Part shown: positions 1 through 27,628 of the stretch, piece after piece | Numbering within the stretch: position 1 is the stretch's first letter | Layout of the letters: every line of letters begins with the position of its first letter | Assembly: GCA_010093815.1 (NCBI GenBank) | Contig: ML996578.1 | Strand: one strand, 5' to 3' | Source of the DNA: Pseudovirgaria hyperparasitica | Taxonomy: Eukaryota | Length of the DNA: 28,994 bases | Translations under genes and position numbers: made by a program | Notes under the pieces: generated by a model | What the model was told of the DNA's origin: nothing | Databases searched by the model: none | The model's input: only the letters and a program-made list of their open reading frames with translations

Positions 1-754
1 CGCGACTGGCGCGTGTTATGTCCATGGACTGTGTTCTGCTTGGTACCATCGTTTTGGGGCTGACGCTCACGGTCCTTTCCCGTTCTCTCTGTGTAGTATA
101 TTCTGACCCGTTCCTCTCCGCTTGCGGACTAATATTGTCGTACACGGCCGGCGATTCTGGTACTAGAACAGGTGGCCGCCCAGATACTGGGGTATTCGAC
201 TGAGTATTGTATGAGGTGCTAGATGGTGTTCGCTGTTGATTGTATGGGCTTGCAGGTTCTCTTGATATATAGCTTGAGCTCCGCGGTAGCGAGGGTGGCG
301 GACCGAGAGGTGTCGACGGGTGTGACTGCAGCGCGTGGTTGTATGGCGGTGGATGTGAGAATGACGACGCGGACAGAGGAGATTCTCTATGTGAGTGTGG
401 AGTATGTCCGCGCGCGGACGCCGATGAAGGCGACTGTGAGGGATGTCCTTGGGGCGCATTGTAGCTAACTCCAGCAGTTGTTATTGGATATGGTGAGGCT
501 GAAGGTCTATTGAAGGGCGCTGGAGGAACATGTCCCGTAGGTGTGGTCGCAGAGTATAGCTCTCTCTGGGGATATGAATGAGGATTTGGAGGGTACGGTC
601 CGTGATTGTAGGCTGTTGTAGGAGAAGCGAAGCTATGCGGTGGTGGACGAGGATTGTGAGGAGAACTGTGGATAGGAGAGTATCTGGGCGCAGAGGACTG
701 CGACTGTTTGGGTGTGGTATCCGTCTCTTGCGTGAGCATGGACTTGATATCCAT
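1..754 (-). CDS. CET1: 5' part of a host gene, probably mRNA-capping enzyme subunit beta (RNA 5'-triphosphatase, Cet1-like); runs off the left edge
   Basis: Stop-free minus-strand frame from ATG at 754 to the window edge (251 codons), absent from the ORF track because it has no stop. MDIKSMLTQETD... Pro/Ser/His-rich, with SHPSTPLGPPP and RERERTVSVSPKT motifs that I recall from the disordered N-terminus of filamentous-fungal Cet1. The catalytic domain is outside the window, so the CDS is well supported but the name less so. Confidence 0.65.
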   Translation of the reverse strand, partial: MDIKSMLTQETDTTPKQSQSSAPRYSPIHSSPHNPRPPPHSFASPTTAYNHGPYPPNPHSYPQRELYSATTPTGHVPPAPFNRPSASPYPITTAGVSYNAPQGHPSQSPSSASARGHTPHSHRESPLSASSFSHPPPYNHALQSHPSTPLGPPPSLPRSSSYISREPASPYNQQRTPSSTSYNTQSNTPVSGRPPVLVPESPAVYDNISPQAERNGSEYTTQRERERTVSVSPKTMVPSRTQSMDITRASR

Positions 755-2358: not shown

Positions 2359-2362
2359 TAAA

Positions 2363-2602
2363 TGTAAGGATTATAGACGTAGAATAGTAGTCTAATAGAT
2401 TATAGGAGGATTCGGGAATATATTTAAAAGGGTAGTCTACTCTCCTAATAAGGTTAATTTCTAAAGAGTAGGAATCAAGTATATGCGGCCTACTTATATA
2501 GTAGTCTCGCTTATTCTAGCTAACTTACCCTAGGTCCACCTATTACGGACCGTACTAGACCATAGTATTCTAGTTAAGTCTATCCTAGTATTAGCCCTAA
2601 TA
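2363..2602 (-). repeat. B1 3' LTR
   Basis: 240-bp repeat (also at 10156, 19515, 27120); plus strand TGTAAGG...CCCTAATA; adjacent to the polypurine tract AAAAAGAAGAAGGATA on the element strand. Confidence 0.95.
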
Positions 2603-2765
2603 ATATCCTTCTTCTTTTTATACTTCGCCCCGAAGTACTTAGCTATATATAAATCCGTAATTCTATAAGCGTTATATTTATATACGTATCTAATTAAATC
2701 TATATAACATTATTAATAGTCTTTATATTAGTAAACTTAAGCTCTAGTTTACTTTTATTTATATA

Positions 2766-2890
2766 NNNNNNNNNNNNNNNNNNNNNNNNNNNNNNNNNNN
2801 NNNNNNNNNNNNNNNNNNNNNNNNNNNNNNNNNNNNNNNNNNNNNNNNNNNNNNNNNNNNNNNNNNNNNNNNNNNNNNNNNNNNNNNNNN
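2766..2890. other. Assembly gap (others at 19932-19941 and 21507-21671)
   Basis: Runs of N; the first two lie at the homologous position of B1 and B2. Confidence 0.99.
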
Positions 2891-3112
2891 TTTTCTTCTC
2901 TAGTATATCTACCTTACTCTTAAGGTAAGTCATTAATTTATATACTATCTTCTTTAGTTTAGATCCGTTCGGGTCTAGAGTAGTCCATTTTTATTAGAAC
3001 TAGTCCTATATAATCTATTCGCGTTATTACGGTCACTAATTTAGCTTCTTTAATCGCCTTAAGGCTAAACGAGTATTCTACTCTTAGATCTCTAGCTAAT
3101 ATATATATATAG

Positions 3113-4416
3113 ATATCTAATACTAGTTCTATTCCTAAGCCTACCTCCTCCTCTCGTAAGACTCGCTCTAAAGGGATTACCTCTACCCTAGCTATACCGG
3201 CTAAGAAATCTACTTATTATAGTAGTATAAAGGCGCGCTCTAAGTTAGAGAAGAAGGTAGCTAAGGCTACTACTACTATTACTACTAACGTGGCCACTAG
3301 TCGCTCTAATCTAGGTAATTCTAGTACTAGTATTACGGAAGAGGTAGCTATAAAGTCTATCTATATCTACTCGCGCTATCTATCTACTCTACCTTCTTTA
3401 GAGGATAAAGAAGATCTTATTATAGATAATAATCGAGAGTTCACGCCTTCGCCGCCTCGCTCTAAACGCCGTTCCTCTTTTCGGTCTAATATAGACTAGC
3501 TTAGTTACTCTAGGTCCTTTTAGGACCTTAATATTTACTCTAAACCTAGCCCTAGTAATAATAAGGCCTAGGTTACTAAAGATACTAAACGTGGTCGCGG
3601 TTTACGCTATAGGAAAACGGTGAACTATAGTTTAATATACTTTAAGTATATTAAGGCTCACGCTACCGGCTATAAATATCTCTTCCGCTCTAACTCTAGT
3701 ATTAGCTACTACTCTACTAACCGTGATAGGCCTATACGCCTAATCTTTAAGCTTCCTACCCGCTACCACCGCTATACCATAACTAGTAAGACTTATCTAT
3801 AGGTAAGTATAATAGGCTATCTTAATCTAGTATAATCTAAAGTAGTCCGCGCTAATATATTCTTAGGTTCCTATATATATATAAGATATATATAACGATC
3901 TTCGCGTCCGTGAGACCCTCGGGGGTCCTTATAGCCGCCTACCTACTATATAGAGGGAGTTTAGAGAGCGCTATAAGCTCTTCCTAGAGATTATTAAAGT
4001 ATAAGTTACGAGCACGTTAATTATTTTTAACACCTATTGATTTTTCTAGCCGCCGCGAGATCCCTAGCGCCTAGGCTACCTATTCTAGGGAGTCTATTCT
4101 AGCTATAGAGGCCGTAGAGAGAATTCACTCTATCCCCCCCCGTCTATCTCGCGCTACTAATAGATCTTATAAGAGGTCTACTATTTCTCCCTCTAAGTCG
4201 CCTCGTAAGAGGGTATATATTCTATTCTAGATTATTCTAGACCGCGTTAGCTAACTTTAGGTCTAGTCGCTCCGCTCTAGCGCTTAGTTATTATCTTACT
4301 AGGCTCTAACCGAGCGCGTGGTTACTCTAGAGGATAAGGTCTCTAACCTCCATCACTCTATTACTTAGTTAGTTTATTCGCTACGCTCTAAGAGTAATAA
4401 TAAGATAGAGGAGTAG
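3113..4416 (+). pseudogene. Antisense intron-containing accessory gene inside B1 (exons 3113-3802, 3867-4000, 4050-4416; ~396 aa, function unknown)
   Basis: One frame interrupted only by RIP-type TAG/TAA codons; it includes track ORFs 3290-3499 and 3620-3802. Intron 3803-3866 reads GTAAGT..GCTAAT..TAG; intron 4001-4049 reads (G>A)TAAGT..CTAG. Splicing restores the frame, and B2 has the same structure. Confidence 0.72.
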
Positions 4417-4733
4417 CTCTATAGCTCTGTTTACTAGGGTTTCTATATAGTGTATGTTAGCTCTATCTACCTGGTTTCTATCCGTTTTAGTCCTTTTTAG
4501 ACCGTTTAGATACCTATCTACTAGTTTTCTAGTAATTTAATTCTTAACTTAATAATATTATGTACGTTCTTATTTATTCTATAACTATTAAATTTTAGAT
4601 TCTAATTTCCTTTAAGTTACTTAAGTATAGGCATCGTATATAAATTAGTTTATCTCTCTAAATTATATTAGAGCACCCGAACTAGTAGCCTAGTAGTTAT
4701 CGGTTCGGGTACTCTAACCTTTTATATTATATA

Positions 4734-7700
4734 TCACGAGTTTAATTCCGTAGTAGGGTACCTTTTTAGTTTCTTAGTCCCATGTTCTTCTCGTGTACAA
4801 TAGTCCATGTTAGTCTATTCTAGACTTCTCTATATTATTCTATTATAATATGTCGCGTCGCGTGCCTATAACGGTTATTTACGTTTTCTTCGCGTTTAGT
4901 AACCGTGTATCGCTTGAATTATAGGGCTGCCTTATAGAGTTTTCCTAGTGTGCGTTTAGGATTCGTAATTTAACACTTCGTTCTCTACGGTATCCTTCTT
5001 CTTTTTACGACGACCGCGACGTTACTATACTTATATTAATAATACGCTATTCTATATCTTTTACTTATACGCAGCCATTATAGAACTTAAGATATATACC
5101 GCTAGTTCCTAGGTGTCCTTGTCCTTAGTATAGTCCTTCTAACGGATTCTATATTTCTAAATACCGTCTTTATCGATCCTATGTTTAATAATATAGTCCA
5201 CTTCGAACACGCCTAGTCTATCTTAGGGTATAATAGAGTATAACTATACGTTCGTGCGGCTATACACGTTAGGTCGAAATCTTTCGAGTAGTAAGACGTG
5301 GAATACGTTATAGATTCTTATATCGCTTCCTAAGTCGAGCTCGTAGGCTCTTATACCGATGCGACGTTTAATTTAGAAAGGACTAGCTATTTTATAATCG
5401 AGCTTCTTATTTACTCGCGACGTTTATATATTATAGATATTAAGAAGGACCTCGTCGCCCTCCTTATACGTCTAATCCTTAGCTAACCTATTATAGTACT
5501 TCGTATACGAGTCGTTTACTTATTAGATTATAGCGCGATAGTTACGTGCGGTTTCGAAGATTTTAATCGCTAATTCCTAAGCGTAGACGTTCACGTCTAT
5601 TATTCGATTAAATTAGACCGTCTAAGGCTTAAAACCTATCCTTAGACTATGTCCGAGGTTCGCCTAGAAAGGTATAATACCTATTATACTATAATGACTA
5701 TTATTATATACGAACTCTACTATACTTAGTAGGGAGGCCTAGTCGTCCTACTTAAAATTATAGAATACACGTAGGTAGGCCTCGAGCGTCTGGTTCTATC
5801 GCTCTATCTAGCTATCCGTCTAAGGATAAAATACTATAGACATGTTTCTATTTATACTTACCATTTCGTAGAATAACGTCTAGAATTTAGACATGAAGGT
5901 ACTTCCTCGGTCCGTAACGATCCTTTTTAGTATACTATAGACCTTAATAATCTTATTCTAGAACACCTATGCTAGTTCTTTAGATATAATCGTCTTCTAT
6001 ACCGGGATATACCTAGATATCTTTATAAGTCTATCCACGATAATAAGAATAGAATTATAACTTATCCTAAGCATCTCGCTTAGAGGTAAGTTAACTATAA
6101 AATCTATAGTAACGTCTTCCTATATAAAGAGGGGGGCTAAAAGAGGCTGTAAATTCCTATATAGCTTATATCTAGGGGCCTTCGTTCTTTAATAAATCGG
6201 ATAAGTAGCTATCTATTCTTTAATGTACTTAGGTATATCTTCCTAAAAATAGTACTAACGAATTAAGCTTAGGGTACGTATATATCTAAAGTATCCTACT
6301 AGGTTAGCGTTATAGTATCGGCTAACTACGTTAAATCGCGCGTTACCCGTCGGTATATAGTACTTTCTATTATAGTAAAGTAAGCCGTCTATAAAGGTCT
6401 ACTTATAGTCTACTTTAGTCCGTAATAACCTATCTTACTATATTTTATGTAACTTTAAAACTATTAGGTCTATCTTCTATAGATCTATAATTAACTAGGC
6501 GAGGTTAATTAGATATTCACGCTAGGCATTATCGCCCTTCCTAATAGCGCTAATAAACGGCCTACTAGGGACTTCGGTACCGCGTCTTTAGTTACCGGCT
6601 TTAGTCTTAGAGATTCGATTACTAGTATCGATGTTAGTATCTCGCTAATCGCCTAATAACTTAAAATCCAACCTCGTCCTTAAGAGTTAGGCCTATAGCT
6701 ACTCTAGGACCCTATGGCTACTATAATCCTAGGCGCCTTCTTTATAGTTAGGTCTTCTTAACATTCTATTAGCTAGGTTTATACTTCTAGGTTAATAGTA
6801 GATTATAAAGTAAAAGTTCGTAAGCTACTTAGCCTATTAGATCTATTAACGGTTTAAAACCGTTATGCTTATAAACCCCTTTAAGTTATAGTAATTAGTT
6901 AGTAACTTAACGTTATATATAGTACCTTTAAGATAATATCGCTACTACTTAAACGACTCTACTATTACTAGTAGCTCTTAGTTATAAATAGTATATCTAG
7001 TCTTAATATCGGCTATCTTACGCGAGAAGAACGTAACTAGATACCATTAGACCTTTTTAGACTCTATTAGTCTAGGCTAGGAGAGTATACCTAAGATTAT
7101 AAATCCTAATATATTAGTCTTAACGTAAATAGATTTGATTAGGTCGAAGTACACTAGGAATAGGGCGGTTATAAATGCTTCTTTAATCTTCTCGAAGGAT
7201 ATTCTTTCGACCTTAGTTAATTTAATAGATTATAATTTAATATTACGCTATTTCTATCTACCACGGACCATAATAGACGAGTCGGTAGTAGTAGTACGCG
7301 TATTAAGTAGTGCGGCTAAACGGGAGAAGTGCTTAACGAATTTTCGGTAGTAATTGGCGAATCTAATAAAGACACGTATATCTTAAACCGATTTTAGTTT
7401 AGGCTAGTCTATAATAGTAGCGACCCTATCTCTTTCTATGGTTATATCTTAATTAGTAATAACGAAGCTAAGGAAGTTAATATAGTCCTAGTAGAACTCG
7501 CATTTAGATAGCTTAATATATAGCTTATATTTTTCTAGCCTATCTAGGACTACGCGTACGTACTAGATGTATTCTTCTTCGTTATTAGAGAAGATAAGAA
7601 TATTATTAAGGTATATAATGCACGTTATGTCGAGTAGACCTACTAGCGCGTTATTAATATACGCTTAGAAGGTTCCTAGCGCGTTAGTTAGTCTAAAAGG

Positions 7701-8735
7701 GACTACTATGTACTCGAAGTATCTATAACGGGTCCTAAACGCCGTTTTCCACTTATCGCCCTTCTTAATACGTAGGCGGTAGTAGGCGTTACGTAGATTA
7801 AGCTTAGTAAAGATCTTCGCGCGCCCTAGTCTATTAATAGACTTAGAGATAAGAGGTAGTAGATAACGATTCTTTCGTATAATGTTATTTAGGCCACGGT
7901 AGTCGATATATAGATAGAGACTCCTATCCTTCTTCTTTATAAAGAGGATTAGAGCTCCGGCTAGGGATATACTAGGTCTAATCTATCCTCGCGTAAGGTT
8001 CTTTTCGATATATTCTTAGAGGACCTATAGCTCGGGTTCTAATAGAGGGTAGATGGGTCCGTGTAGGGGTTATTAACCGTTTTCGAGGTTAATAGTAAGG
8101 TCGGTAGGTTGGTATTAAGGTAATTCGGACGAGTCGATCGCTAACGCGATATATTAGTATATTTTATACTAATGTAGTAGGTTTTCGTCTACTTTAATAC
8201 TAAGCTCTCTATTTTAAGTAAGTAAAAGGACGTAGATAGCGGAGATTACCTTTTCGTAGTCCTTCTAGAATTATTCGTCGTCGACTAGCTATACTAGGTT
8301 CTATTATAGTAGGTATATACGCTAGCCAGCTATTTTCTAGATGAAGTCTAGTTTCGGGTTATGTTTTTTAAGCTATGGTATACCGAGGATTATATCGAAG
8401 GGACTATCTACCACGATAAAGGTTAAGTAGCAGGGTTTCTACTTCCCCCTACTATCCTAGATAGGGTATTTAATAGTATAGGTACCCTACGATTTAATAG
8501 AACCATCGATACTATGGAAGGTAGCACCTATTAGTACTTAAATATCGACGTTAAGTTCTCGTGCTCGTTAAGTTAATATAACGTTAGTAGCTAAACCGCT
8601 ATTAAGTATTACGGTCTAATGTTATCCACGAGGGACCTTAATAGGTCTAGTCTATAGTTTAATATACTATTTAGTAGATTACCCCTCTATTATAGTCGCG
8701 TCTATAAGTCGCGAGGGTTTCTCGTAGACTATTAG
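4734..8735 (-). pseudogene. pol: B1 pol (protease, RT, RNase H, integrase, chromodomain, basic tail)
   Basis: IL(D>N)SG at ~8596-8610; [20 protein letters not shown](DD>NN) at 7602-7613; integrase core ~5550-6330; chromodomain FEVD.IIKHR..KYRIRWK.Y..DTWE at ~5100-5210; RRGRRKKKKD tail. The 3' end (TGA at 4734-4736) is approximate. Confidence 0.92.
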
Positions 8736-8741
8736 TTTTTT
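8677..8741 (-). promoter_or_regulatory. -1 ribosomal frameshift signal at the B1 gag/pol junction (B2 heptamer at 25699-25705)
   Basis: Slippery heptamer AAAAAAC (8735-8741) directly before the gag stop, then a 5-nt spacer and a possible pseudoknot. Confidence 0.8.
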
Positions 8742-10114
8742 ATATTCTATGCTAGATAGTTAGGCGCGATATATCCTAGCTACTAGCACTTATAGTATAT
8801 AACTAGTTAGTTAGTTATATTAGCACTTAGTAGCTTCCCTAAACGGTACTTAGGTACTATATAGTCTATTCTACTATAGGTATAGTAAGTAACTTTAGGT
8901 TATTTATACGAGTTAGTCCTCGTATCTCGATATATTAATTGGTAGGGAGATCTACGATACGATCCGCGTGGTTTTAAATTCGAGGCGTGGTAGTAGCCTT
9001 ATAACGTCCCGCGAGATCTATTACTAAATCGGTTTTAGTTAGATAATTTTACGTTAGATTAGATCGTTAGGGATAGTCGTATACTAGCACGGCGTTAATT
9101 ATTTATTATACGCTAGTATCGCTCCGCGAGGTTTATAAGAGCTTAGAGATCTATAGGGATTATCGTTATAAGGTCGAGACGGTTCTTTATATTTAGGGCG
9201 AGGGACCGTTTAAAGTTATCGTACTATTAAATTATACGATCTTCTTCGGCTTCTCTCTAGAGGGGCTGAAGGTATTTAAGGAGTTATAACGGTAACTAAT
9301 TATCTCGTTATCGAGTCTTAAAGATATAGCCCTAGGCCTAGTCGTGTTATTTAGCCCTATTACTAAAACATTAGAGGAGAAATTCGGTGAACGTGTCCTA
9401 GTTATAGGTATCCTTAGGATATTCGATTTAGTATACTATCTAACGTTCTAAAGGCGTCGGGTCGAGATAGTTCTAGGCGAATCTAATTTTATCGCTATCG
9501 TTCGTAAATAGATAGAAGAATTAGCTATATTAGTAAGCCTATATATGGAAACTCTTTCTACTTTTACCATCGAAGTAAGGTAGTTTCTTAGGTCGGGGTA
9601 ATTAGGATAGTAGTAGACTAGAATAGATCGTTTCAGTTAGTATAGATCCATATAAATATAGATTAGTCGTTACTAGAACTAAAGCGCGTAATATAGCTTT
9701 AAGTCTCGTAGTACGTTCTCGAGCTTCGTCGAGTTTGCGTAGTTATTACTTAAGTTAAACCTATCGTTACCTCTCTTTATATAGTCTAGTATACACGTCG
9801 TTATAAGGTATAGTTAACGTTAGGCGATTCTAACGGATTAACTCGTTAACGTTAATAAGGTCTAGCCTTATATTAAGGTTAGGTCTAGTATAGTTCGAAC
9901 TAGACTAAGATAGAGTATAATAGACTCTATCCTCGTATTCTATAATATCTTCTATAGTTATACGGAATATCGTGCGAGTTATTAGTGCGATAGCCTATAA
10001 GGTATAGTTATTAGTAGGGGTAGTTATAGGTAGACTATTCTCCTCGTTTAGGTTAGGAGAAGGTCTACCATAAGAGGCGGTGCCACGAGTGTTATGACGA
10101 GTAGTTAGAGCCAT
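8732..10114 (-). pseudogene. gag: B1 gag
   Basis: ATG at 10114; C-terminal zinc knuckle de-RIPed CYKCQQPGHIAPNC (~8755-8800); ends A AAA AAC TAA. Confidence 0.85.
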
Positions 10115-10155
10115 TTCTATAAACTACCGTCGTGCTATATAAAGAGGAATTAAAA

Positions 10156-10395
10156 TATAAGGATTATAGACGTAGAATAGTAGTCTAATAGGTCATAGGA
10201 GGATTCGGGAATATATTTAAAAGGGTAGTCTACTCTCCTAACGAGGTTAATTCCTAAAGAGTAGGAATTAAGTATATACGGCCTACTTATATAGTAGTCT
10301 CGCTTATTCTAGCTAACTTACCCTAGGTCTACCTATCACGGACCGTACTAGACCATAGTATTCTAGTTGAGTCCATCCTAGTGTTAGCCCTAACA
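10156..10395 (-). repeat. B1 5' LTR (TATA box at 10286-10293)
   Basis: Element strand TGTTAGGG...CCTTATA; followed by TT, the PBS and the gag ATG at 10114. Confidence 0.95.
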
Positions 10396-10400
10396 TTAAG

Positions 10401-12449: not shown

Positions 12450-15400
12450 GGGACTAGAATATACTCTAAATTATATAGATAAATATATAATATAAAAGAG
12501 AGAACTAGGCGACGCTCCTCGAAGAGACCGGGGCTATAATACTTACTATCTAGGAACCCTATAAACACTACTAGACGAGTAAACTAACTATACACCCCGG
12601 ATACTATACTATATACCCTCTAGGACTAGAAAGACGAGTCCTCTTCTACATTTATAGGTTAATACTACTCTTATTATGGTTATATACCGAGCGCGATAAC
12701 CTTAGGATAATACTACACCTATAAATAGATATAGGCCCCCTATATATATATAATATATATAACTAATAACGTATACTTATACTAGACGAGATGCTCGAGG
12801 GTACCACGGAACTAGGGTAATACATCCTCCTAGGAGACTTTAACCTCTACTACTAATAGTAGGGAGGTCTAGCCGTAGTAAGGGAAGAACTTAGAGTAAG
12901 GGAACTACGCACCCGCTACCACGACTTTCTATACCTACTTACACCTATAGAATAAGTTATATAGAAAAAATATAAATAGGATAAAGACGGGTCTACGCTT
13001 AACCTTACCTTTACTACGGAGTATATTAGTTACCGGATCTAATACTACCGCCTAAGCTAGGTATAGACAGATTCTAACCATGAATATATGGAAACCGTAA
13101 TAAACGTATATACCCCGAATAAATAATAGGGATAATAGATATAGAAGGACACTAACTAGGAAAAGTACCTGAAGAACCTAGAATCGGCGATCCTAGATCC
13201 CTCTATAGTCGATATATCTAACGACCTAGCCATAGACTAGGCCGTATAGATACTTCTATAAATATACTAGAATGCGAGAAATAAACACGTACTATACTAA
13301 ATATACCGGTCCCCGGAAGTAAAGGGGATTCCTCGAGTATAGGAAAGTAGATAAGACGCCCGAAGGCTATATACACGCGTATACCGTACGAGAATACCCG
13401 AGTTATAGAAAGAATAGAAGAAAGCGATACGATAACGCGATAAAGTCCTCTATAACGAAAGGCGTAAATAGTAGCGTATAATTACTAGTTAATAGACACG
13501 ATACGTAATAGGGCTATGGCGTATAGCGAAATAGGCTAAGGGCGTAGACACTCCGACACCCCCGCTACTTATACCTCCCCTAATATATTAGGGGAGAATA
13601 TACTCTATGAGCCTTAAGAAAACTAAGGCCCTACGGGAGGCTATATTCCCTCTCCTAGAACTAGTAGACCTATTAGACGTTCACGGCGCTAAATACCTAT
13701 ACGCGGTAGATATCCCCGAAGAAGTTACGGAGGAGGACATACTTAATATTATTAAGATACTCCCAAATAATAAAGCACCCGGACTAGATGGAATTCTAAA
13801 TCGATACCTAAAAAGCACTATAAAAGCGACTCTACCACTTATTACTTATATATTCTAAGCATGCGTCACGCAGGGGTACCACCCCTAGAGCTTCCGAGTC
13901 GTCTATACTATTATACTCCCGAAACTAGGAAAGAGCCCTAACTCCCTAAAGGGATAGAGACTAATCGCCCTTCTCTTCTACCTAGGTAAGATACTAGAGG
14001 CTATGGTAGCGAAGAAGATAAGTACCGTAGTATAGAAATATAATCTCCTCCCTCCGAACCAGAAGGTAAAGATAGATAGCTCCCTAATAATAGCTATCTA
14101 ATATATTATTGAAGTCGTCTAGGCCGTATAGAAATAGGGACGGGTAGTATCGCTCCTCTCCCTTAATATAGCCGGAGCGTTTAATAAGGTAAACCATATA
14201 AGACTTATTTATAACCTCCGGATAAGACGAATACTAGAATAGATTATACGCTTTATATAGTTATTCCTTATAGGAAGAATAACTTAGATATATATCTCTA
14301 GATACTAGAGCGAATATAAAGAGACGGTATACGGCATCCTATAAGGGAGCACTATCTCTCTAATCCTATTCCTCTTCTTTACGGTAGACCTTCTTTAAGG
14401 AATAAAGTATATAGAGGTAGTCGGATACGCCGATAATATATACCTCCTAGCTATTAATAATAATACTAACCGAACGTATAGACGACTAGAACAGGACCAT
14501 AAGAGGTACCTCTAGTAGATAAAACGCCACAGAGTAAAGTTCGCCCCAGAGAAATACTAGCTTATACACTTTATTAACCATTAAGGGAAATAGGTAACTA
14601 GAGAAGGCGAACAACGCCCCCGAATCAACGCATTTAACAAACTACTAGTATAAAGTATATACGCGCTCGGAGTTATACTAGATAGTAAGCTTAAATAGGG
14701 ACCATAAGTAGTATACGCCGTCTCTAGGGCCCTCTAGATAGAAGCCGCTATATAACGGATTATAGCCTCTACGTAGGGAACCGCCTAGGATAAGGTACGC
14801 TAGCTATATATATCTATAGCACGACCCGCCTTCACGTACGGACACGAGTGCTAGTACACGGCCCTTATATAGACTAGGCGAATGAAGCTTAAATCCATAT
14901 AGAACCGTATACTCCGTCTTATATTAGGCGTATATAAAGCTACTAACACGGTACTACTACGACGCGAGATAGACGTTATAAGTATATATAACTTCTACTA
15001 GATATAGAGGGTAGTATACTTTACTAAATAATAAGTATAGGAACGCATAGGAAACGTAGAATATACCTTCGCCGCACTACGTATACAAATTAGTATATAT
15101 TACCGCGTACTCCTATATATAGGCCGGAATTAAATACGGTATAGGTGCTTAATAGAAGCCGACTCTAGCTAAGTAGTATAAGAAGTCTAAGATAACCCGG
15201 ACGCTCTCCTAGACCGGTAGAGCCTTTAAGAACTCGTGAAAAATATATGGTTATAGACTTAAGATAAGTAGAAAGAGATACTCCGTGCCTACTAGACCTT
15301 CTAGTAGAATAGATACCTAGAGTAGATTTAAGAACTATAGAAGGAACCGAGTAAATAGATATATAAAGGGCTAACGAAAGCCTAAGTATCTATACTTATC

Positions 15401-15832: not shown

Positions 15833-16023
15833 TAGGCGTACCCTATAGCTATATACTTAAGACGAAATAGAGGTTTAACGAGATGTAGTTATAGACATAA
15901 GGAAGTTTTTCTCTATAGGGTTTCTTCTTATATAGTAGCTTAGACTAGAGGAGGCATAGGCCTATAGAGTACTACTCTACCTAGTTATATAATATTATTA
16001 TTATTATTATAGTATTAAGAAAG

Positions 16024-16487
16024 GTTACTATAATAAGTAAGAGTTTATTAACTAGCTAGAGATATACCTATTCCCTAGCCTATAAGAGAAGTACCCTAAT
16101 TAGACTATAGTTATTATTATAGATAATCTCTCTCTTTATACTAATAATAATATTACTTCTATAGTTACTATAGCTAGTTATACTCTTTAATATATACCGC
16201 CTTACTTATCTAATTATAATTCTATTAAGTTAGTATAGGTAGTTCTAAAGGTATAGATTTAAAGGTAGTATCTATTTATATATAAGTAGTTATATAACTT
16301 TAAGGAGTTCTTATACCGCGCCTTTAAGAATAGCTACTATAATTAGTTTACTCTCCGCTTCTTTAAGTATACGGCTAATAGTTAGTATATTAATAAAACG
16401 CTATAAGAGTATATTATTATAGATTTAAAGTAGTTTAAGTATAGTAGAAGGTATGGTTTTATAGTAGAAGTAAGAGATATTAGTTAA
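16024..16487 (+). pseudogene. Tc1-like transposase, fragment 3 (D34E catalytic core and C-terminus)
   Basis: De-RIPed YYN.QEFINWLE..LFP..VIIMDNLSLH..AGH.LQYIPPYSPDYNPIELVWAVLKAWI. D at 16122 and E at 16227 (now AAG) are separated by 34 residues. The three fragments total 361 codons. Confidence 0.9.
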
Positions 16488-18086: not shown

Positions 18087-18240
18087 TATTAGGCACGTAA
18101 GGAGTACGTGGCCTACTAGTTAATTCTACATGTATGTAGTAGTCGTATATAAGTAGTGTGCTCCACCCTTAAAGTAGTAGCTCTAAGATTCGGTCCTTTT
18201 ATAGTATAGTTGGTTGGTGCGTAGAGCCCGCCTCCTTATA
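18087..18240 (+). mobile_element. Solo LTR, family A, copy 2 (154 bp), inserted in element C gag
   Basis: 5-bp TSD GTTAT at 18082-18086 and 18241-18245; removal restores the gag frame. Confidence 0.92.
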
Positions 18241-19514
18241 GTTATATTCGCCGCTAGACTACTAAAGAGAGATATACTTATATGGTTCGAACCCTATCTA
18301 AGGGACTTTATAGAAAATAATCTATAGAATTAATAGAATAATACTACTAAGGTCTTTAAACGCTTCGAAGAATTTAAGAAATATATTAAGATAACTTTTA
18401 GAGATATAGATAAATAAAAGATAGCTAAGAGATAGATCTAGTAAATAGTCTAGATAAAATCTATATCTAACTACGCCTCTAAATTCTAATAAATCTCTAG
18501 TTAGCTAGGATAGGACGATAAACCTCTAATTCTCTAGTTCTATACTAGATTATATAATAATATTAAGGATAAAATCTCTAGAGAGAGAGACTATTCTACT
18601 AACCTCTAGGAGTATATTAAGCTTATAGTCTAGATTAATAACTAACTATATAAGAGATAATATAAGAAAAGAGGGAAGAAGATCTTTTAATCTATACTTA
18701 AATAAGATATAAGAAAGGGCTACGTTAATAAAGCTCTAAACTACTTATATAAGAGATTCTATAATAGACCCATATCTATAGAACTTAGCGCCTTATAAAT
18801 AAAATAACTATCTAATAAAGAAAAGAAGTAACTAAAGAAGGAAGGTAAGTATCTCTACTATAAGAAAAAGGGATACTATATACGCGAATATCTAAAAAAT
18901 AAGAATAAGAAAAGTTAGATTAAAGACCTAGTACTAAGATAAGGGAACTTTACTATAGAAAAGGAAGAAGTACCTTACATAACTATATTATAGACTAGTT
19001 ATACTAATAACCTCTATTTTATATATAAGTTAGAAAAAGATAGTATAGATTAGTATCTAAAGAAAAGAAATATCTTAATAGCTAGTAAATAACCCCTATT
19101 ACTTCACGAAAAAGTAGAACTATAGAAATACTTAGAAGTAATAAGAAGATCTAAACTAACTAAAGAAATAGTATCTAAAGAAGTAATAATTAAAGAAAGT
19201 ACTATAGAGGAGGATAGTAAGAAAGAAACCCTTACTATAGAAGAACTATATAATAAGTTAATAATAATATAAGACTCTATTACTTACTATATTATCTATT
19301 ACTATAGAAAGTATATAAATAAGAATAATAGAGACCTATCTAGAAGAGACGCGGAAATCTAATTAGAAGATAACTAACTTATTTTACCCTACCACGAGGA
19401 ATATAGTAAGACTTTCTAGATTACTTATATCTATAATAACTATCTTCGCTATCTCTATAAGAAGTAAACCTAGAAATAGTTTCTATAATAGTATTAAAAT
19501 TAAGTGATTCTAAA

Positions 19515-22500
19515 TATAAGGATTATAGACGTAGAATAGTAGTCTAATAGGTCATAGAAGGATTCGGGAATATATTTAAAAGGGTAGTCTACTCTCCTAA
19601 TAAGGTTAATTTCTAAAGAGTAGGAATTAAGTATATACGGCCTACTTATATAGTAGTCTCGCTTATTCTAGCTAGCTTAACCTAGGTCCATCTATTACGG
19701 ACTATACTAGACCATAGTAGTCTAGTTAAGTCTATTCTAGTATTAGCCCTAATAATATCCTTCTTCTTTCTATGCTTCGCCCTAAAGTACTTAGCTATAT
19801 ATAAATCTATAATTCTATAAGCGTTATATTTATACGCGTATCTAATTAAATCTATATAACATTATTAATAGTCTTTATATTAGTAAACTTAAGCTCTAGT
19901 TTACTTTTATTTATATATACACTTATCCCTTNNNNNNNNNNTTTTCTTCTCTAGTATATCTACCTTACTCTTAAGGTAAGTCATTAATTTATATACTATC
20001 TTCTTTAGTTTAGATCCGTTCGGGTCTAGAGTAGTCTATTTTTATTAGAGCTAGTCCTATATAATCTATTCGCGTTATTATAGTTACTAATTTAGCTTCT
20101 TTAATCGCCTTTAAGGCTAAACGAGTATTCTACTCTTAGATCTATAGCTAATATATATATATAGATATCTAATACTAGTTCTATTTCTAAGTCTACCTTC
20201 TTCTCTCGTAAGACTCGCTCTAAAGAAATTACCTCTACCCCGGCTATACTAGCTAAAAAATCTACTTATTATAGTAGTATAAAGGCGCGCTCTAAGTTAA
20301 AGAAGAAGGTAGCTAAGGCTACTACTACTATTACTACTAATATAGCTACTAATTACTCTAATCTAGGTAATCCTAGTACTAGTATTACGGAAGAGGTAGC
20401 TATAAAGCCTACCTACACCTACTTACGCTATCTATCTACTCTACCTTCTTTAGAGGATAAAGAAGATCTTATTATAGACGATAATCGAGAGTTTATACCT
20501 TCGCCGCCTTACTCTAAATACTATTCCTCTTTTCGGTCTAATATAGACTAGCTTAGTTACTCTAGGTCCTTTTAGAACCTTAATATTTACTCTAAACCTA
20601 GCCCTAGTAATAATAAGGCCTAGGTCGCCGAAGATACTAAACGTAGTCGCGGTTTACGCTATAGGAAAATAGTAAACTACGGTTTAATATACTTTAAGTA
20701 TATTAAGGCTTACGCTACCGGCTCTAAATATCTCTTCCGCTCTAACTCTAGTATTAGCTACTACTCTACTAACCGCGATAGGCCTATATATCTAATCTTT
20801 AAGCTCCCTACCCGCTACCGCTACTATACTATTCTTAGTAAAGTTTATCTTTAGGTAAGTCTATTAGGCTATTTTAGTCTAGGGTAATCTAAAGTTATCT
20901 ATGCTAATACGTTTTTAGATTTCTATTTATATATAAGATATATATAACGATCTTCGCGTCCGTAAGACTCTCGGCGGTTCTAGTAGTTATCTAGCTTCTA
21001 TACGTAGGGAGTTTAGAGAGCGCTATAAGCTCTTCCTAGAGGTTATTAAAGTATAAGTTTAGAAACTATTAATTATTATTAATCTTAGCTTATAATCTTT
21101 AGTTACTATAAGATTCCTAGCGCTTAGGCTACCTATTCTAGAGAGTTAGTTTTAGCTACTAAGGCCGTAGAAGAGATTCGTACTATTCCTTTCTACCCGC
21201 CTTATACTACTAACGGGTCTTATAAGAGATCTACTAGTTCTTCTTCTAAGTTACCTTATAAGAGGATATATATTCTATTCTAGATTATTCTAGACCGCGT
21301 TAGCTAACTTTAGGTCTAGTCGCTCCGCTCTAGCGCTTAGTTATCGTCTTACTAGACTCTAACTAAGCGCGTGGTTACTCTAGAGAATAAGGTCTCTAAC
21401 CTCCATCACTCTATTACTTAGTTAGTTCGTTCGCTATACTCTAAGAGTAATAATAAGATAGAGGAGTAGCTCTATAGCTCTATTTACTAGGGTTTCTATA
21501 TAGTATNNNNNNNNNNNNNNNNNNNNNNNNNNNNNNNNNNNNNNNNNNNNNNNNNNNNNNNNNNNNNNNNNNNNNNNNNNNNNNNNNNNNNNNNNNNNNN
21601 NNNNNNNNNNNNNNNNNNNNNNNNNNNNNNNNNNNNNNNNNNNNNNNNNNNNNNNNNNNNNNNNNNNNNNNGGTACTCTAACCTTTTATATTATATATTA
21701 CGAGTTTAATTCCGTAGTAGGGTACCTTTTTAGTTTCTTAGTCCTATATTCTTCTCGTGTATAATAGTCTATATTAGTCTATTCTAGACTTCTCTATATT
21801 ATTCTATTATAATATATCGCGTCACGTGCCTATAACGGTTATTTATATTTTCTTCGCGTTTAGTAACCGTGTATCGCTTAAATTATAGGGCTGCCTTATA
21901 GAGTTTTCCTAGTGTGCGTTTAGAATTCGTGATTTAATACTTCGTTCTCTACGGTATCCTTCTTCTTTTTATAGCGGCCCTAATAGCGCTAGGTTTACGA
22001 TAGTAACGTATTATTCTATAACGTCTATTTATATATAGCTATCGCGGTACTTAAGATATATACCGTAGGTTTCTAGGTATCCTTATCCTCGGTATAGTTC
22101 TTCTAATAGATTTAATACTTTTAGATACTATTCTCGTTAAGCCTATATTTAATAATATAGTTTACTTCGTATACGTCTAGTCTATCTTAGAGTATAATAG
22201 AGTATAATTACACGTTCGTGTATTTATATACGTTAGATCGAAACCTTTTAAGTAATAAGACGTAGAATACGTTATAGACTTTTATATCATTTCCTAGGTC
22301 GAGCTCGTAGGCTCTTATACTAATATAACGTTTAATTCGGAAGGGACCAGCCATTTTATAATCGAGCTTTTTATTCACTCGTGATATTTATATATTATAG
22401 ATGTTAAGGAGGACTTCGTCTCCCTCCTCGTACGCTTAATCTTTAACTAATCTATTATAGTACTTTATATACGACTTATTTACTTACTAGATTATTACGC

Positions 22501-25500
22501 GATAGTTACGTACGGTTTTAAAGATTTTAATCGCTAGTTCCTACGCGTGGATGTTAATATCTATTATTTAGTCGAACTAGACCGTGTAAGGTTCGAAACC
22601 TATCCTTAGACTACGTTCTAGGTTCGCCTAGAAGGGCGTGATATCTATTATACTATAACGACTATTATTATACGCGAATTCTACTATACTTAGTAGAGAG
22701 ACCTAGTTATCTTATTTAAAATTATAGAATGCACGAAGGTAGGCCTCGAGCGTTTAGTTCTATTACTCTATCTAACCATCTATTTATAGATAGAATACTA
22801 TTAACATGTTTCTATTTATACCGGCCATTTCGTAGAATAACGTCTAGAATTTAGACGTGAATATACTCCCTCGGTCTATAATAATCCTTTTTAATATACT
22901 ATAGACCTTAATAATCTTATTCTAGAATACTTATACTAGTTCTTTTAATATAATCGTCTTCTATATAGGGACGTATCTAGATATCTTTATAAGTCTATCC
23001 ACGATAATAAGAATTAAATTATAACTTATTCTTAGTATCTCGCTTAGAGATAAGTTAACTATAAAATCTATAGTAATATCTTTCTATATAAAGAGAGTGA
23101 CTAGTAGAGACTATAAGTTCCTATATAGCTTATGCCTAGATACCTTTATTCTTTAATAAATTAGATAAGTAGCTATCTATTCTTTAACGTACTTAGGTAT
23201 ATCTTTCTAAAAATAGTACTAACGAATCGAGCTTAGGGTGCATATATACCCGAAATATTCTACTAGGTTAGCGTTATAGTATTAGCTAACTATAGTAAAT
23301 CGTGCGTTATCTATTAGTATATAGTACTTTCTATTATAGTAGAGTAAGCCGTCCACGAAGGTCTACTTATAGTCTACTTCGGTCTATAATAATCTATCTT
23401 ACTATATTTTACGTAACTTTAAAACTATTAGGTCTATCTTTTATAGATCCGCGATTAACTAGGCGAGGTCTACTAAATATATACGCTGGGTACTATCGCC
23501 CTCCCTAATAGCGCCGATAAATAGCTCGCTAGGGACTTTAGTACCGCGTCTTTAGTTACCGGCTTCGGTCTTATAAATTTAATTACCGGTATTAGCGTTA
23601 GCATCTCGCTAATTATCGGATAACTTATTATCTAACCTCGTCCTTAAGAGTTAGGCCTATAGCTACTCTAGAACTCTATGGCTACTATAATCCTAGGCGC
23701 CTTCTTTATAGTTAGGTCTTCTTAATATTCTATTAGCTAGGTTTATACTTCTAGGTCAATAGTAGATTATAAAGTAAAAATTCATAAGCTACTTAGCCTA
23801 TTAAACCTATCAACGATTTAAAACCATCGTACTTATAAACCCCTTTAAGTTATAGTAATTAGTTAGTAACTTAACGTTATATATAGTACCTTTAAGATAA
23901 TATCGCCACTACTTAAACGACTCTACTATTACTAGTAGCTCTTAGTTATAAATAGTATATCTAGTCTTAATATTAGCTATCTTACGCGAGAAGAACGTAA
24001 CTAGATACTATTAGACCTTTTTAGACTCTATTAGTCTAGGCTAGAAGAGTATACCTAAGATTATAAATTCTAATATATTAGTTTTAACGTGAATAGGTTT
24101 AGTTAGGTTAAAGTATACTAGTAATAGGGCGGTTATAAATACTTCTTTAATCTTCTCAAAGGATATTCTTTTAACCTTAGTTAATTTAATAGGTTATGAT
24201 TTAATATTACGCTATTTCTATCTACTACGGACTATAATAGACGAGTCGGTAGTAGTAGTACGCGTATTAAGTGGTACGGCTAAACGGGAGAAGTGTTTAA
24301 TAAATTTTTAGTAGTAGTTAGCGAAGCTAATAAAGACACGTATATCTCGAATAGATTTTAGTTTAGACTAGTCTATAATAGTAGTAACTCTATCTCTCTC
24401 TATGGTTATACCTTAATTAGTAATAACGAAGCTAAGAAAGTTAATATAGTTCTAATGGAACTCGTATTTAGATAGCTTAATATATAGCTTATACTTTTCT
24501 AGTCTATCTAGAACTATACGTACGTGCTAGATATACTCCTCCTCGTTATCTAAGAAGATAAGGATATTATCTAGGTATATAATATATATCGTGTCGAGTA
24601 GGCCTACTAGCGCGTTATTAATATACGCTTAGAAGGTACCTAGCGCGTTAGTTAGTCTAAAAGGGACTACGGTATACTTAAAGTATCTATAACGGGTCCT
24701 AAAAGCCGTTTTCTATTCGTCGCCTTCCTTAATGCAAAGGTAATAGTAGGCGTTACGTAGATCGAGCTTAGTAAAGATCTTTACGCGTTCTAGTCTATCG
24801 ATAGACTTAGAGATAAGAGGTAGTAGATAATAATTCTTTCGTGTAATATTATTTAGGCTATAGTAGTCGATATATAGACGGAGGCTCCTATTCTTCTTCT
24901 TTATAAAGAGGATTAGAGCTCTAGCTAGGGATATACTAGGCCTAATCTATTCTCGCGTAAGGTTCTTTTCGATATATTCTTAAAGGACTTATAACTTAGA
25001 CTCTAAAAGAGGGTAGATAGGTCTATATAGAGGTTACTAGCCGTCTTTAAGATTAATAGTAAGGTCGGTAGATTAGTATTAAGGTAGTTCGGAGGAATCG
25101 ATCGCTAACGTAATATATTAGTATATTTTATACTAATATAGTAGGTTTTCGTCTACTTTAATACTAAGCTTACTATTTTATATAAGTAAGAGTATATAGA
25201 TAGTAGAGATCGCCTTCTTATAATCTTTCTAGAATTATTCATCGTCGATAAGCTATACTAGTTCCTATTAAGGTAGGTTTATACGCTAGCTAGCTATCTT
25301 CTTAAGGAAGTCTAGTTTTAGATTATATTTCTTAAGCTATAGTATACCTAGAATTATATTAAAGGGACTATCTACTACGATAAAGGTTAAGTAGTAGAGT
25401 TTCTATTTCCCTCCGCTATCCTAGATACTATATTTAATAGTATAGGTGCCGTATAACTTAATAGGACCGTTAATACTATAGAATATAGTATCTATTAGAG

Positions 25501-27359
25501 CTTAGATGTCGGCGTTAAGTTCTCGTGCTCGTTAGATCGACATAACGTTAGTAGCCGACCTACTATTAAGTATTATAGTCTAATATTATCCACGAGGGAC
25601 CTTAATAGGTCTAGCCTATAGTTTAATATACTATTTAGTAGATTACCCCTCTATTATAGTCGTGTCTATAAGTCGCGAGGGTTTCTCATAGACTATTAGT
25701 TTTTTATATTCTATACTAGGTAGTTAGGCGCGATATATCCTAGCTACTAGCACTTATAGTATATAACTAGTTAGTTAGTTATATTAGCACTTAGTAGCTT
25801 CCCCGAATAGTACTTAGGTACTATATAGTCTATTCTACTATAGGTATAGTAAGTAACTTTAGGTTATTTATACGAGTCGGTCCTCGTATCTTAATATATT
25901 AATTAGTAGAGAGATCTATAATATAATCCGCGTGGTTTTAAATTCGAGACGTAGTAGTAGCCTTATAATATCCCGCGAGATCTATTACTAAATTAGTTTT
26001 AGTTAGATGATTTTATATTAGATTAGATCGTTAGGGATAGTCATACACTAGCGCGGTATTAATTATTTATTATACGCTAGTATCGCTCCACGAGGTTTAT
26101 AAGAGCTTAGAGGTCTATAGAGATTATTATTATAAGGTTAAGACGGTCCTTTATATTTAGGGCAAGGGACCGTTTAAAGTCGTCGTACTATTAAATTATA
26201 TAATCTTCTTCGGCTTCTCTCTAGAGAGGCCGAAGGTATTTAAGGAGTTATAACGGTAACTAATTATCTCATTATTAAGTCTTAAAGATATGGCCCTAGG
26301 CCTAGTCGCGTCGTTTAGCTCTATCGCTAAAATATTAGAGGAGAAATTTAGTAAACGTGTCCTAGTTATAGACATCCTTAGGATATTTAATTCGGTATAC
26401 TATCTAACGTTCTAAAGGCGTCGGGTTAAGGTAGTTCTAGGCGAATCTAATTTTATTGCTATCGTTCGTGAATAGATAGAAGAATCGGCTATATTAGTAA
26501 GCCTATACGTGGAAACTCTTTCTACTTTTACTATTAAAGTAAGGTGGTTTCTTAGGTTAGGGTAATTAGGATAGTAGTAGACTAGAATAGATTATTTTAG
26601 TTAGTATAGGTCTATATAAATATAGATTAGTCGTTACTAGAACTAAAGCGTATAATATAGCTTTAAGTCTTATAGTACGTCCTTAAGCTTCGTCGAGTTC
26701 GTGTAGTTATTACTCGAGTTAAATCTATTATTACCTCTCTTCGTGTAGTCTAGTATATATATTATTATAAGGTATAGTTAACGTTAGGCGATTCTAACGG
26801 ATTAACTTATTAATATTAATAAGGTCTAGCCTCATGTTAAGGTTAGGTCTAGTATAGTTTAAACTAGACCGAGATAGAGTATAATAGACTCTATCCTTAT
26901 ATTCTATAATATCTTCTATAGTTATACGGAATATCGTGCGAGTTATTAGTACGATAGCCTATAAGGTATAGTTATCGGTAGGGGTAGTTATAGGTAGACT
27001 ATTCTCCTCGTTTAGGTTAGGAGAAGGTCTACTATAAGAGGCGGTACTATAAGTATTATAACGAGTGGTTAGAGCTATTTCTATAAACTACCGTCGTGCT
27101 ATATAAAGAGGAATTAAAATATAAGGATTATAGACGTACGATAGTAGTCTAATAGGTTATAGAAGGATTCGGGAATATATTTAAAAGGGTAGTCTACTCT
27201 TCTAACGAGGTTAATTTCTAAAGAGTAGGAATTAAGTATATACGGCCTACTTATATAGTAGTCTCGCTTATTCTAGCTGGCTTAACCTAGGTCTACCTGT
27301 CACGGACCGTACTAGACTATAGTAGTCTAGTTAAGTCTATCCTAGTGTTAGCCCTAATA
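19515..27359 (-). mobile_element. Full-length chromovirus, family B, copy 2, inserted in element C gag
   Basis: 240-bp LTRs at 19515-19754 and 27120-27359; TSD CTAAA at 19510-19514 and 27360-27364; colinear with B1 (gag 25696-27078, pol ~21698-25699). Confidence 0.95.
20165..21469 (+). pseudogene. Antisense intron-containing accessory gene inside B2 (introns 20855-20918, 21053-21102)
   Basis: Colinear with 3113-4416; splice signals conserved while intron interiors diverge; a 1-nt length difference falls inside intron 2. Confidence 0.72.
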
Positions 27360-27628
27360 CTAAAAGCCTTTAGGGATAAAGATATATAATAGTATAAAAT
27401 AATTACTAAGAAAGCTAATAAAAACTACTTTATATTAAAACGGGTAGAAAATAAGATTTATCTAGAGAATTAATATACCTAATACCTGGATATTATATAC
27501 CGAACTTATTTAATATCTAAGGCTATTATATAGTATAACCTTTAAGTAGACTTAGATAAAATTAAGAAATAAGTTTAATCTATAATCTAACTTATATAAG
27601 AAACGGAATAAGAACTTAGTAAGCTATA

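Follow-up and report, generated by a model that had tools for sequence, protein, structure and literature searches.

A probable opposite-strand, intron-bearing accessory gene in a RIP-mutated chromovirus family of Pseudovirgaria hyperparasitica

Two copies of a chromovirus, a Ty3/gypsy retrotransposon, lie in the 28,994-nt stretch of contig ML996578.1 of Pseudovirgaria hyperparasitica (assembly GCA_010093815.1) that was analyzed here and is called the window. In both copies, termed B1 and B2, the DNA separating the pol stop from the polypurine tract carries a frame with few stops that runs antisense to gag-pol. We regard this antisense open reading frame (aORF) as probably the remnant, inactivated by repeat-induced point mutation (RIP), of a real accessory gene of the chromovirus family. 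It is probably a further antisense extra ORF of a known class, an orphan in sequence and dead in both copies, and it is likely to have contained spliceosomal introns. Its product is likely to have served the element. The copies and the features of the gene (in B1 unless stated otherwise) are as follows.

2360–10399, minus strand: copy B1, from a self-comparison of the window by BLAST
19511–27363, minus strand: copy B2, from the same comparison
2891–2924, plus strand: last part of a possible non-coding first exon, with ..AAG preceding GTAAGT; no difference between the copies; presumed role
2925–3112, plus strand: putative intron in the 5′ untranslated region (UTR), weakly supported, with GTAAGT, GCTAAT at 3095–3100, and AG at 3111–3112
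3113–3802, plus strand: coding exon 1, 230 codons, a well-supported core; three internal TAG codons and a TAG at the exon end
3803–3866, plus strand: intron 1, 64 nt, with GTAAGT, GCTAAT, and TTAG (AG at 3865–3866); phase 0 to phase 1
3867–4000, plus strand: putative exon 2, 134 nt, phase 1; weak taken alone
4001–4049, plus strand: putative intron 2, one base longer in B2 (50 nt) than in B1 (49 nt); donor now ATAAGT, acceptor TTTTCTAG
4050–4416, plus strand: putative exon 3, 367 nt, phase 2; TAG at 4414–4416
4306–4371, plus strand: leucine-zipper-like stretch in the exon 3 frame, four Leu at 7-residue spacing with V, V, and I at a positions
4417–4990, no strand assigned: T-rich spacer separating the antisense gene from the end of pol, free of periodicity; presumed 3′ ends of both convergent units
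20165–20854, 20919–21052, and 21103–21469, plus strand: the antisense gene in B2, with the same three exon lengths

Exon 1 holds TAG at codons 129, 137, 153, and 230, the identical set in B1 and B2. Four stops in 230 codons is the lowest count anywhere in the mutated DNA of the window: sliding windows of 230 codons in the six frames have a median of 22 stops and a 5th percentile of 11, and the best window in pol has 6. When exon 1 was shuffled 2000 times with its dinucleotides preserved, the six-frame minimum averaged 17.4 stops and never fell below 7. The composition of the three codon positions differs strongly, with a stronger bias than in pol (B1, chi-square p = 3.7e-14; B2, 3.2e-11), and the TA dinucleotides of exon 1 are concentrated on the boundary between codon position 3 and the next position 1 (79:22:21), a pattern that pol shows in weaker form. 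The first-pass annotation had pointed to an opposite-strand frame in both B copies, and 3113–3802 is indeed open beyond shuffles and strongly 3-base periodic. Its statement that the frame is broken only by RIP-type stops provides no test, since any TAA or TAG passes as RIP-type. The plus strand is the coding strand because the best minus frame of the region contains 10 stops compared with 4 and none of the three minus frames matches a Pfam family. The presence of the same four stops in both copies is expected because gag-pol shares 133 of its 170 stop positions between B1 and B2. Exon 1 is very likely a real protein-coding frame of the active element.

It is very improbable that no gene is present at all, and that the openness and periodicity are by-products of RIP acting on a non-coding spacer of odd composition, with splice motifs arising by chance in TA-rich DNA. 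In its favor, the two strands of the window together contain 26 GTAAGT motifs, every stop can be excused as RIP, no homologue was found, and a codon model trained on pol is negative. None of the 2000 shuffles is as open as exon 1, the periodicity exceeds that of pol, and no tandem repeat accounts for it (the largest is a 21-nt (CTA)7). Moreover, RIP creates stops and does not remove them, so the frame can have held no more stops in the ancestor than it does now.

The three exons of 690, 134, and 367 nt add up to 397 codons in both copies, so the arithmetic of the ~396-codon model holds in B1 and B2. Introns 1 and 2 measure 64 and 49 nt in B1 and 64 and 50 nt in B2, and the exon lengths are unchanged. 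The three-exon reading has 14 internal stops in B1 and 13 in B2; all of the latter are present in B1, and where B1 has its extra stop, B2 encodes Arg. Both copies have a canonical intron 1 (TAG followed by GTAAGT, then GCTAAT and TTAG). The donors at 2925 and 3803 are preceded by G, a context that RIP leaves untouched. The window contains nine patterns of the type GTAAGT..CTAAY..YAG, seven of them on the plus strand and two on the minus strand. The aORF copies account for four, with two sites each, and one pattern starts directly after codon 230. We consider intron 1 quite likely to be real. The full three-exon model is favored less firmly. It requires phases 0, 1, and 2, and a codon model trained on exon 1 favors phase 1 at 3852–3971 and phase 2 at 3972–4452. 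The distribution of TA over the three phases is 11/6/6 at 3867–3998 (not significant) and 7/17/5 at 4050–4250 (p = 0.014). Stops make up 5–6% of the codons in exons 2 and 3, which is no argument against coding because pol now carries ~7%, and equally no argument for it. When all GT..AG pairs were enumerated, 303 two-intron models kept the frame, and the enumeration did not discriminate among them.

Comparison of B1 with B2 provides a second line of evidence. The copies differ by 23% in intron 1, 41% in intron 2, and 9.6–16% in the exons. Intron 1 contains 4 transversions in 64 nt, and 10 of the 49–51 positions of intron 2 are transversions or belong to an indel. The strong divergence of intron interiors noted in the first-pass annotation thus stands for introns 1 and 2; the divergent patch (3780–4130) takes in exon 2 as well, and the rest of the gene is nearly without transversions. 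Within this region, 13 transversions fall in 113 intron bases and 12 in 237 adjoining exon bases (Fisher p = 0.043). Uneven divergence is by itself no sign of constraint because the copies are mosaics: transversions are absent from 8650–10150, 6700–7150, and 4150–4900, and peak at 6–8% in 3780–4130 and 8200–8350, which suggests recombination between element lineages before RIP. Only two indels separate B1 and B2 in 2891–4451 (1561 aligned bases), at 3058 and 4041. Both fall in putative introns, which occupy 19% of the aligned length (chance of both inside, ~0.04), and the sole indel among the listed variants of thousands of other copies is again that at 3058.

Selection on the frame was assessed by a synonymy test with pol as the control; transversions only were counted because transitions are RIP noise. 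In the exons, 6 of 14 transversions are synonymous compared with 18.8% expected (P = 0.033), corresponding to a ratio of nonsynonymous to synonymous change (dN/dS) of ~0.3 from these 14 events in two copies; the frames shifted by 1 and 2 give 3 and 1. The synonymous changes CTA/CTT and GGG/GGC cited by the first-pass annotation are among the differences. In pol, 35 of 61 transversions are synonymous (P = 7e-14, dN/dS 0.14), with 9 and 7 in the wrong frames. Exon 3 contributes 2 synonymous changes out of 4, and counts for single exons are too small to decide. The codon positions of all B1/B2 differences in exon 1 (21/21/24) are swamped by RIP transitions. There are modest signs of purifying selection on the antisense frame.

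Several observations weigh against the three-exon gene. With the pol-trained codon model, not even exon 1 scores positive; this model failed to separate coding from non-coding DNA and is uninformative. Exon 1 ends in TAG in B1, in B2, and in the loose-end consensus of other copies, and because this TAG is present in every copy seen, including some loose-end copies that retain CpA or CpG 17 bases away, it may be a true stop. The intron 2 donor that keeps the frame reads ATAAGT at 4001 in both copies, and moving it to the GT at 3999 leads into a frame with 23 stops. It is plausible that this donor is a former GTAAGT: the change from TpG to TpA is near saturation here, so a GTAAGT preceded by T would become ATAAGT. 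Accordingly, the first-pass claim of two coding introns with conserved donors, acceptors, and frame applies fully to intron 1; for intron 2, the sites are the same in both copies and the frame is kept, but the donor is not GT. Exons 2 and 3 alone are no more open than shuffles (P = 0.45), and the phase preferences of the codon model and of TA are not independent of each other. The putative 5′-UTR intron has its GTAAGT, GCTAAT, and AG in place and lacks the interior divergence claimed for introns; at 3.7% it is the most conserved part, below every exon. Few events underlie the tests of selection (14), indels (2), and divergence (25), which give P values of 0.03–0.04 each and were picked after seeing the data. 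Finally, no homologue of the product was found in any search.

Some of these points would fit a shorter antisense gene, which we consider rather unlikely. Such a gene would end at the TAG of 3800–3802 (229 residues, single coding exon) or at the TAA of 4002–4004 (~275 residues after the 64-nt intron); the DNA downstream would be untranslated, and the second intron and exon 3 would not be real. The invariant TAG, the non-GT second donor, the unexceptional openness of the downstream part, and the TAA that exon 2 in phase 1 meets within the supposed donor are all compatible with it. It does not account for GTAAGT standing right after the TAG, with a branch site and an acceptor at fungal spacing (chance of a start within 3 nt of the ORF end, ~6e-4), nor for the phase 2 periodicity in 4050–4250, the zipper in the exon 3 frame, the two synonymous changes among four exon 3 transversions, or the constancy of the exon lengths while intron 2 has an indel.

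The antisense region is not a peculiarity of B1 and B2. Among indexed public runs, the stretch was present in one sample only (runs X1 and X2), and no RNA run was listed as containing it. Short contigs at 80% likeness numbered 7448 in X1 and 2731 in X2; because they span all 30 bins of 2891–5400, the antisense region belongs to a very abundant family. Among the listed variants (40 of 213 positions), these contigs differ from the window mainly by transitions, and all copies seen are mutated. These data support assignment of the antisense frame to the element family rather than to a single copy. Runs X3 and X4, which carry the species label of X1 and X2, contain next to none of the stretch; one 193-nt contig of X3 matches 4327–4481 and continues into unlike sequence after 4481.

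Homology searches were carried out with heavily RIP-mutated queries, exon 1 against all collections and exons 2 and 3 against Pfam and 79 related chromovirus loci from metagenomes. The readings of exons 1–3 match no Pfam family, including the PMD and transposase-28 domains. A word-indexed search of 5.8 billion proteins with exon 1, at near and shorter lengths, found no relative, and the scans of metagenome and viral contigs found no match. A full HMMER search of 1.84 billion representatives with a B1+B2 profile of exon 1 gave a single match (E = 1.4e-4), made of eight stretches of a 677-residue repeat protein and judged spurious, and the search of PDB sequences gave two chance matches (E about 0.7). 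The first-pass annotation had proposed an uncharacterised family, with which the lack of relatives in protein, PDB, and contig searches is consistent, given so mutated a query; homologues lying antisense in Gypsy elements, which it had suggested looking for, were not found in the 79 loci. There, tblastn with all three exon readings found no match, and none appeared after query and loci had been mutated in silico to RIP saturation, a procedure under which the reverse transcriptase control gave 84 matches (z = 55). One comparison, between exon 3 and an antisense ORF of locus L063, reached z = 3.5 (p = 0.005 among 9 comparisons) and was treated as chance. An origin as an inverted gag copy was rejected because the gene resembles neither gag nor any other sequence in the window.

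Antisense ORFs are uncommon in the related loci. A repeat pair and a pol ORF of at least 700 residues are present in 17 of the 79, and in only two of these, L001 and L063, does the stretch from pol to the LTR (long terminal repeat) hold an antisense ORF of at least 130 codons without a longer sense ORF. Locus L001 has an unmutated pol of the same clade as the window element and two overlapping antisense ORFs downstream of it (6063–7009, minus strand; 234 and 132 codons) with several CxxC-like motifs. These could be joined through a candidate intron of 44 or 47 nt with a CTGAC branch site to give ~300 codons. They match no Pfam family and have no relative among the other 78 loci. L001 and the window gene are alike in having predicted opposite-strand ORFs after pol and a candidate intron, and unlike in sequence: when both were RIP-saturated in silico, no similarity was detected (z = 0.9 and −0.7).

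The scarcity of such ORFs, the missing relatives in the 79 loci, and the resemblance of antisense introns to those of a captured cellular gene would suit a passenger, that is, a fragment from a host gene or from some other mobile element that was captured in reverse, open at capture and of no use to the retrotransposon. We think this quite unlikely. No cellular homologue appeared among the 1.84 billion representatives and no similarity to gag or other window parts was seen, the region occurs throughout a very abundant family, and the frame was still open, with an excess of synonymous changes, after the B1 and B2 lineages had split.

An accessory gene of the element, as preferred here, has counterparts. 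Antisense ORFs between pol and the 3′ LTR (aORF-3R) are described for maize Grande, rice RIRE2, Silene Retand, and Phaseolus PvRetro13 (PMC7264820). Some extra ORFs (eORFs) of the Tat lineage end in a coiled coil (PMC4408406), and both the plant aORF-3R and the fungal gene brtn are described as having an unknown function (PMC7264820, PMC4408406, PMC8365987). The window gene shares with the plant aORF-3R the place between pol and the 3′ LTR, the opposite orientation, and the occurrence of the region across copies of a family. It differs in belonging to an ascomycete-type chromovirus, not a plant Tat element, in having no PMD or transposase-28 domain detectable with Pfam, and in its two or three putative spliceosomal introns; the accessible text on plant aORF-3R and Tat eORFs contains no mention of introns in antisense ORFs.

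The fungal precedent, brtn of Boty-like elements, reportedly goes back to Zhao et al. (2011, Virology). The first-pass annotation had invoked it, and it does exist in print, as seen through citing papers: brtn is an antisense gene of Boty-like Gypsy elements in Botrytis and Sclerotinia (cited in PMC8365987, PMC7264820, PMC4227169, and PMC5987419). In the terms of those citations, brtn and the window gene are both extra antisense genes of a Gypsy element with a chromodomain, and both lie in the interval from pol to the 3′ LTR. The collections searched, including NCBI proteins, showed nothing similar to the window gene, with a RIP-degraded query and no direct comparison with BRTN. In literature that mostly did not cover subscription journals, brtn of Boty was the only fungal antisense extra gene found, and no report turned up of a fungal chromovirus having an antisense gene with introns.

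Antisense extra genes in LTR retrotransposons are known but rare, and none has a proven function. If real, the present gene would be a second unrelated fungal case, with introns, and would indicate that chromoviruses have repeatedly acquired opposite-strand genes, the antisense position of which lets them retain introns through reverse transcription. For annotation, it is relevant that such genes are absent from protein databases because repeat masking and RIP hide them.

Here, we propose how the gene may have worked in the active element. Its own promoter would lie in the internal region beside the 3′ LTR, partly under a run of N, and transcription would be directed towards pol. Two short introns of fungal type (64 and ~49 nt), perhaps together with the 188-nt leader intron, would be removed from the transcript, and translation of the spliced mRNA would yield a protein of ~396 residues. 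In the genomic RNA of the element, these introns would be present as their reverse complement and hence remain unspliced. Because they are antisense to that RNA and not spliced out of it, they would be copied into every new insertion.

What can be read of the product is a low-complexity front half rich in Ser, Thr, Arg, and Lys, a short acidic patch, and the heptad stretch LTERVVTLEDKVSNLHHSI. The acidic patch and the coiled-coil-like C terminus described in the first-pass annotation are both present, the latter with four Leu at 7-residue spacing and with charged residues surrounding the heptads (4306–4371). Among ~58,000 codon positions of the six-frame translation of the window, the zipper pattern has four matches; the aORF copies account for two, and the remaining ones are hydrophobic junk. 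The pattern suggests a C-terminal leucine-zipper-like coiled coil through which the protein may have formed a dimer. No basic DNA-binding region is recognizable before the zipper, where the preceding 27 residues hold 5 stops.

To calibrate mutated residues, nine unmutated relatives were aligned with the mutated pol sequences of both copies, and columns with agreement among 8 or more of the nine were used. Tyr codons in the mutated pol (n = 85) correspond to Y 41, H 28, C 10, R 4, and Q 2; Lys (n = 52) to K 24 and E 20; Asn (n = 43) to N 19 and D 17; and stops (n = 49) to W 22, R 12, and Q 11. The Arg content of the product (10%) is the trustworthy part of its composition. The reading as a basic, nuclear protein is weak and uncertain because 20 of 52 Lys in pol were formerly Glu. 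A Cys-rich, zinc-binding segment had also been proposed and did not hold up: the 397-codon reading contains no Cys codon, only 10 of 85 calibrated Tyr in pol were Cys, and most aORF positions at which Tyr differs between the copies are R/Y (e.g., PPRSKRRSS and PPYSKYYSS). The exon readings match no zinc domain and no bZIP family in Pfam, and zinc binding by the product is improbable at best.

The product would most likely have been a helper or regulator specific to the element, with nucleic acid or chromatin as its binding target. The role as a regulator, targeting, or anti-silencing factor suggested in the first-pass annotation is speculative. HBZ of human T-cell leukemia virus type 1 (HTLV-1) is produced from an antisense unit starting from the 3′ end, with a spliced leader and a leucine-zipper product. 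By analogy, the window gene, which would share with HBZ-type genes the antisense orientation, a spliced leader (putative here), and a zipper, might be an intron-bearing fungal counterpart of retroviral antisense regulators, acting as a dimer on the LTR or on chromatin and controlling transcription or blunting silencing. This more specific idea is unlikely. Unlike HBZ, the predicted product has no bZIP match and no recognizable basic region by the zipper, and it comes from a fungal retrotransposon. If true, a zipper regulator would help explain the very high copy number reached before RIP killed the family.

The following features define the host element in B1.

2360–2605, minus strand: 3′ LTR with TG..CA ends partly mutated to TA, from self-BLAST and edge reading
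10153–10399, minus strand: 5′ LTR, from self-BLAST and edge reading
2607–2619, minus strand: polypurine tract, AAAAAGAAGAAGG on the sense strand of the element
5091–5207, minus strand: chromodomain at the C terminus of pol (Chromo, E = 0.0035, below the Pfam cut-off)
7461–7940, minus strand: reverse transcriptase domain of pol (RVT_1, E = 3.1e-19)
2766–2890: run of 125 N, masking some of the sequence in which the promoter and first exon of the antisense gene are presumed to lie

B1 and B2 are ~88% identical over 1570 + 5692 aligned bases and have LTRs of 244–246 bp. With stops treated as X, the pol of B1 also matches RT_RNaseH_2 (1.3e-12, one of two RNase H families), SH3_Tf2-1 (1.2e-11), and, weakly, the integrase zinc-binding family Integrase_H2C2 (0.0094). 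A tail of the form RRGR..KK runs from the chromodomain to ~5000 and matches the consensus of pol relatives; relatives at ~50% identity carry PF00385. The nearest pol proteins in the 5.8-billion-protein collection are ~50% identical chromoviruses, mostly metagenomic; named fungal sources among them are few (Parastagonospora and Aspergillus). The pol domains, LTRs, and polypurine tract all fit Ty3/gypsy chromoviruses, to which B1 and B2 belong on this sequence evidence. From the pol end (~5000) to the polypurine tract, B1 measures ~2.4 kb with the 125 N counted, and the range across copies is ~2.2–2.4 kb; the extra region is present in both copies as first annotated, somewhat longer than the ~2.1 kb given then. 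Runs of N of unequal lengths lie at corresponding or nearby places in B1 and B2 (2766–2890, 19932–19941, and 21507–21671).

The element is heavily RIP-mutated, and the flank at 1–1400 is unaffected. In the element, TpA/ApT is 1.76–2.39 and (CpA+TpG)/(ApC+GpT) is 0.12–0.18, compared with 0.88 and 1.12 in the flank. The 37 stop positions of gag-pol that differ between B1 and B2 (5041–10151, minus strand) are mostly CGA/TAA pairs; hence, CpA/TpG sites look saturated, and CpG appears to be still converting in two steps to TpA. Element and flank have similar CpG densities (0.045–0.053 and 0.059 per base, respectively). The calibration of residues through the element's own pol and its unmutated relatives, and the transversion-only synonymy test with pol as the control, may serve for other RIP-mutated repeats.

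The flank at 1–1400 has a GC content of 46–53% and is not RIP-mutated. It contains a fully open frame (14–703, minus strand) for a Pro/Ser-rich protein that matches no Pfam family. Between B1 and B2 lie two RIP-mutated remains on the plus strand, one of a non-LTR-type reverse transcriptase (13946–14569; RVT_1, 4.6e-11) and one of a DDE_3 transposase (16017–16259; 6.4e-7). A 150-bp repeat occurs at 2209–2358, adjoining the outer edge of the 3′ LTR of B1, and at 18089–18240, 1.3 kb from B2; its two copies are 94% identical and probably represent another repeat family.

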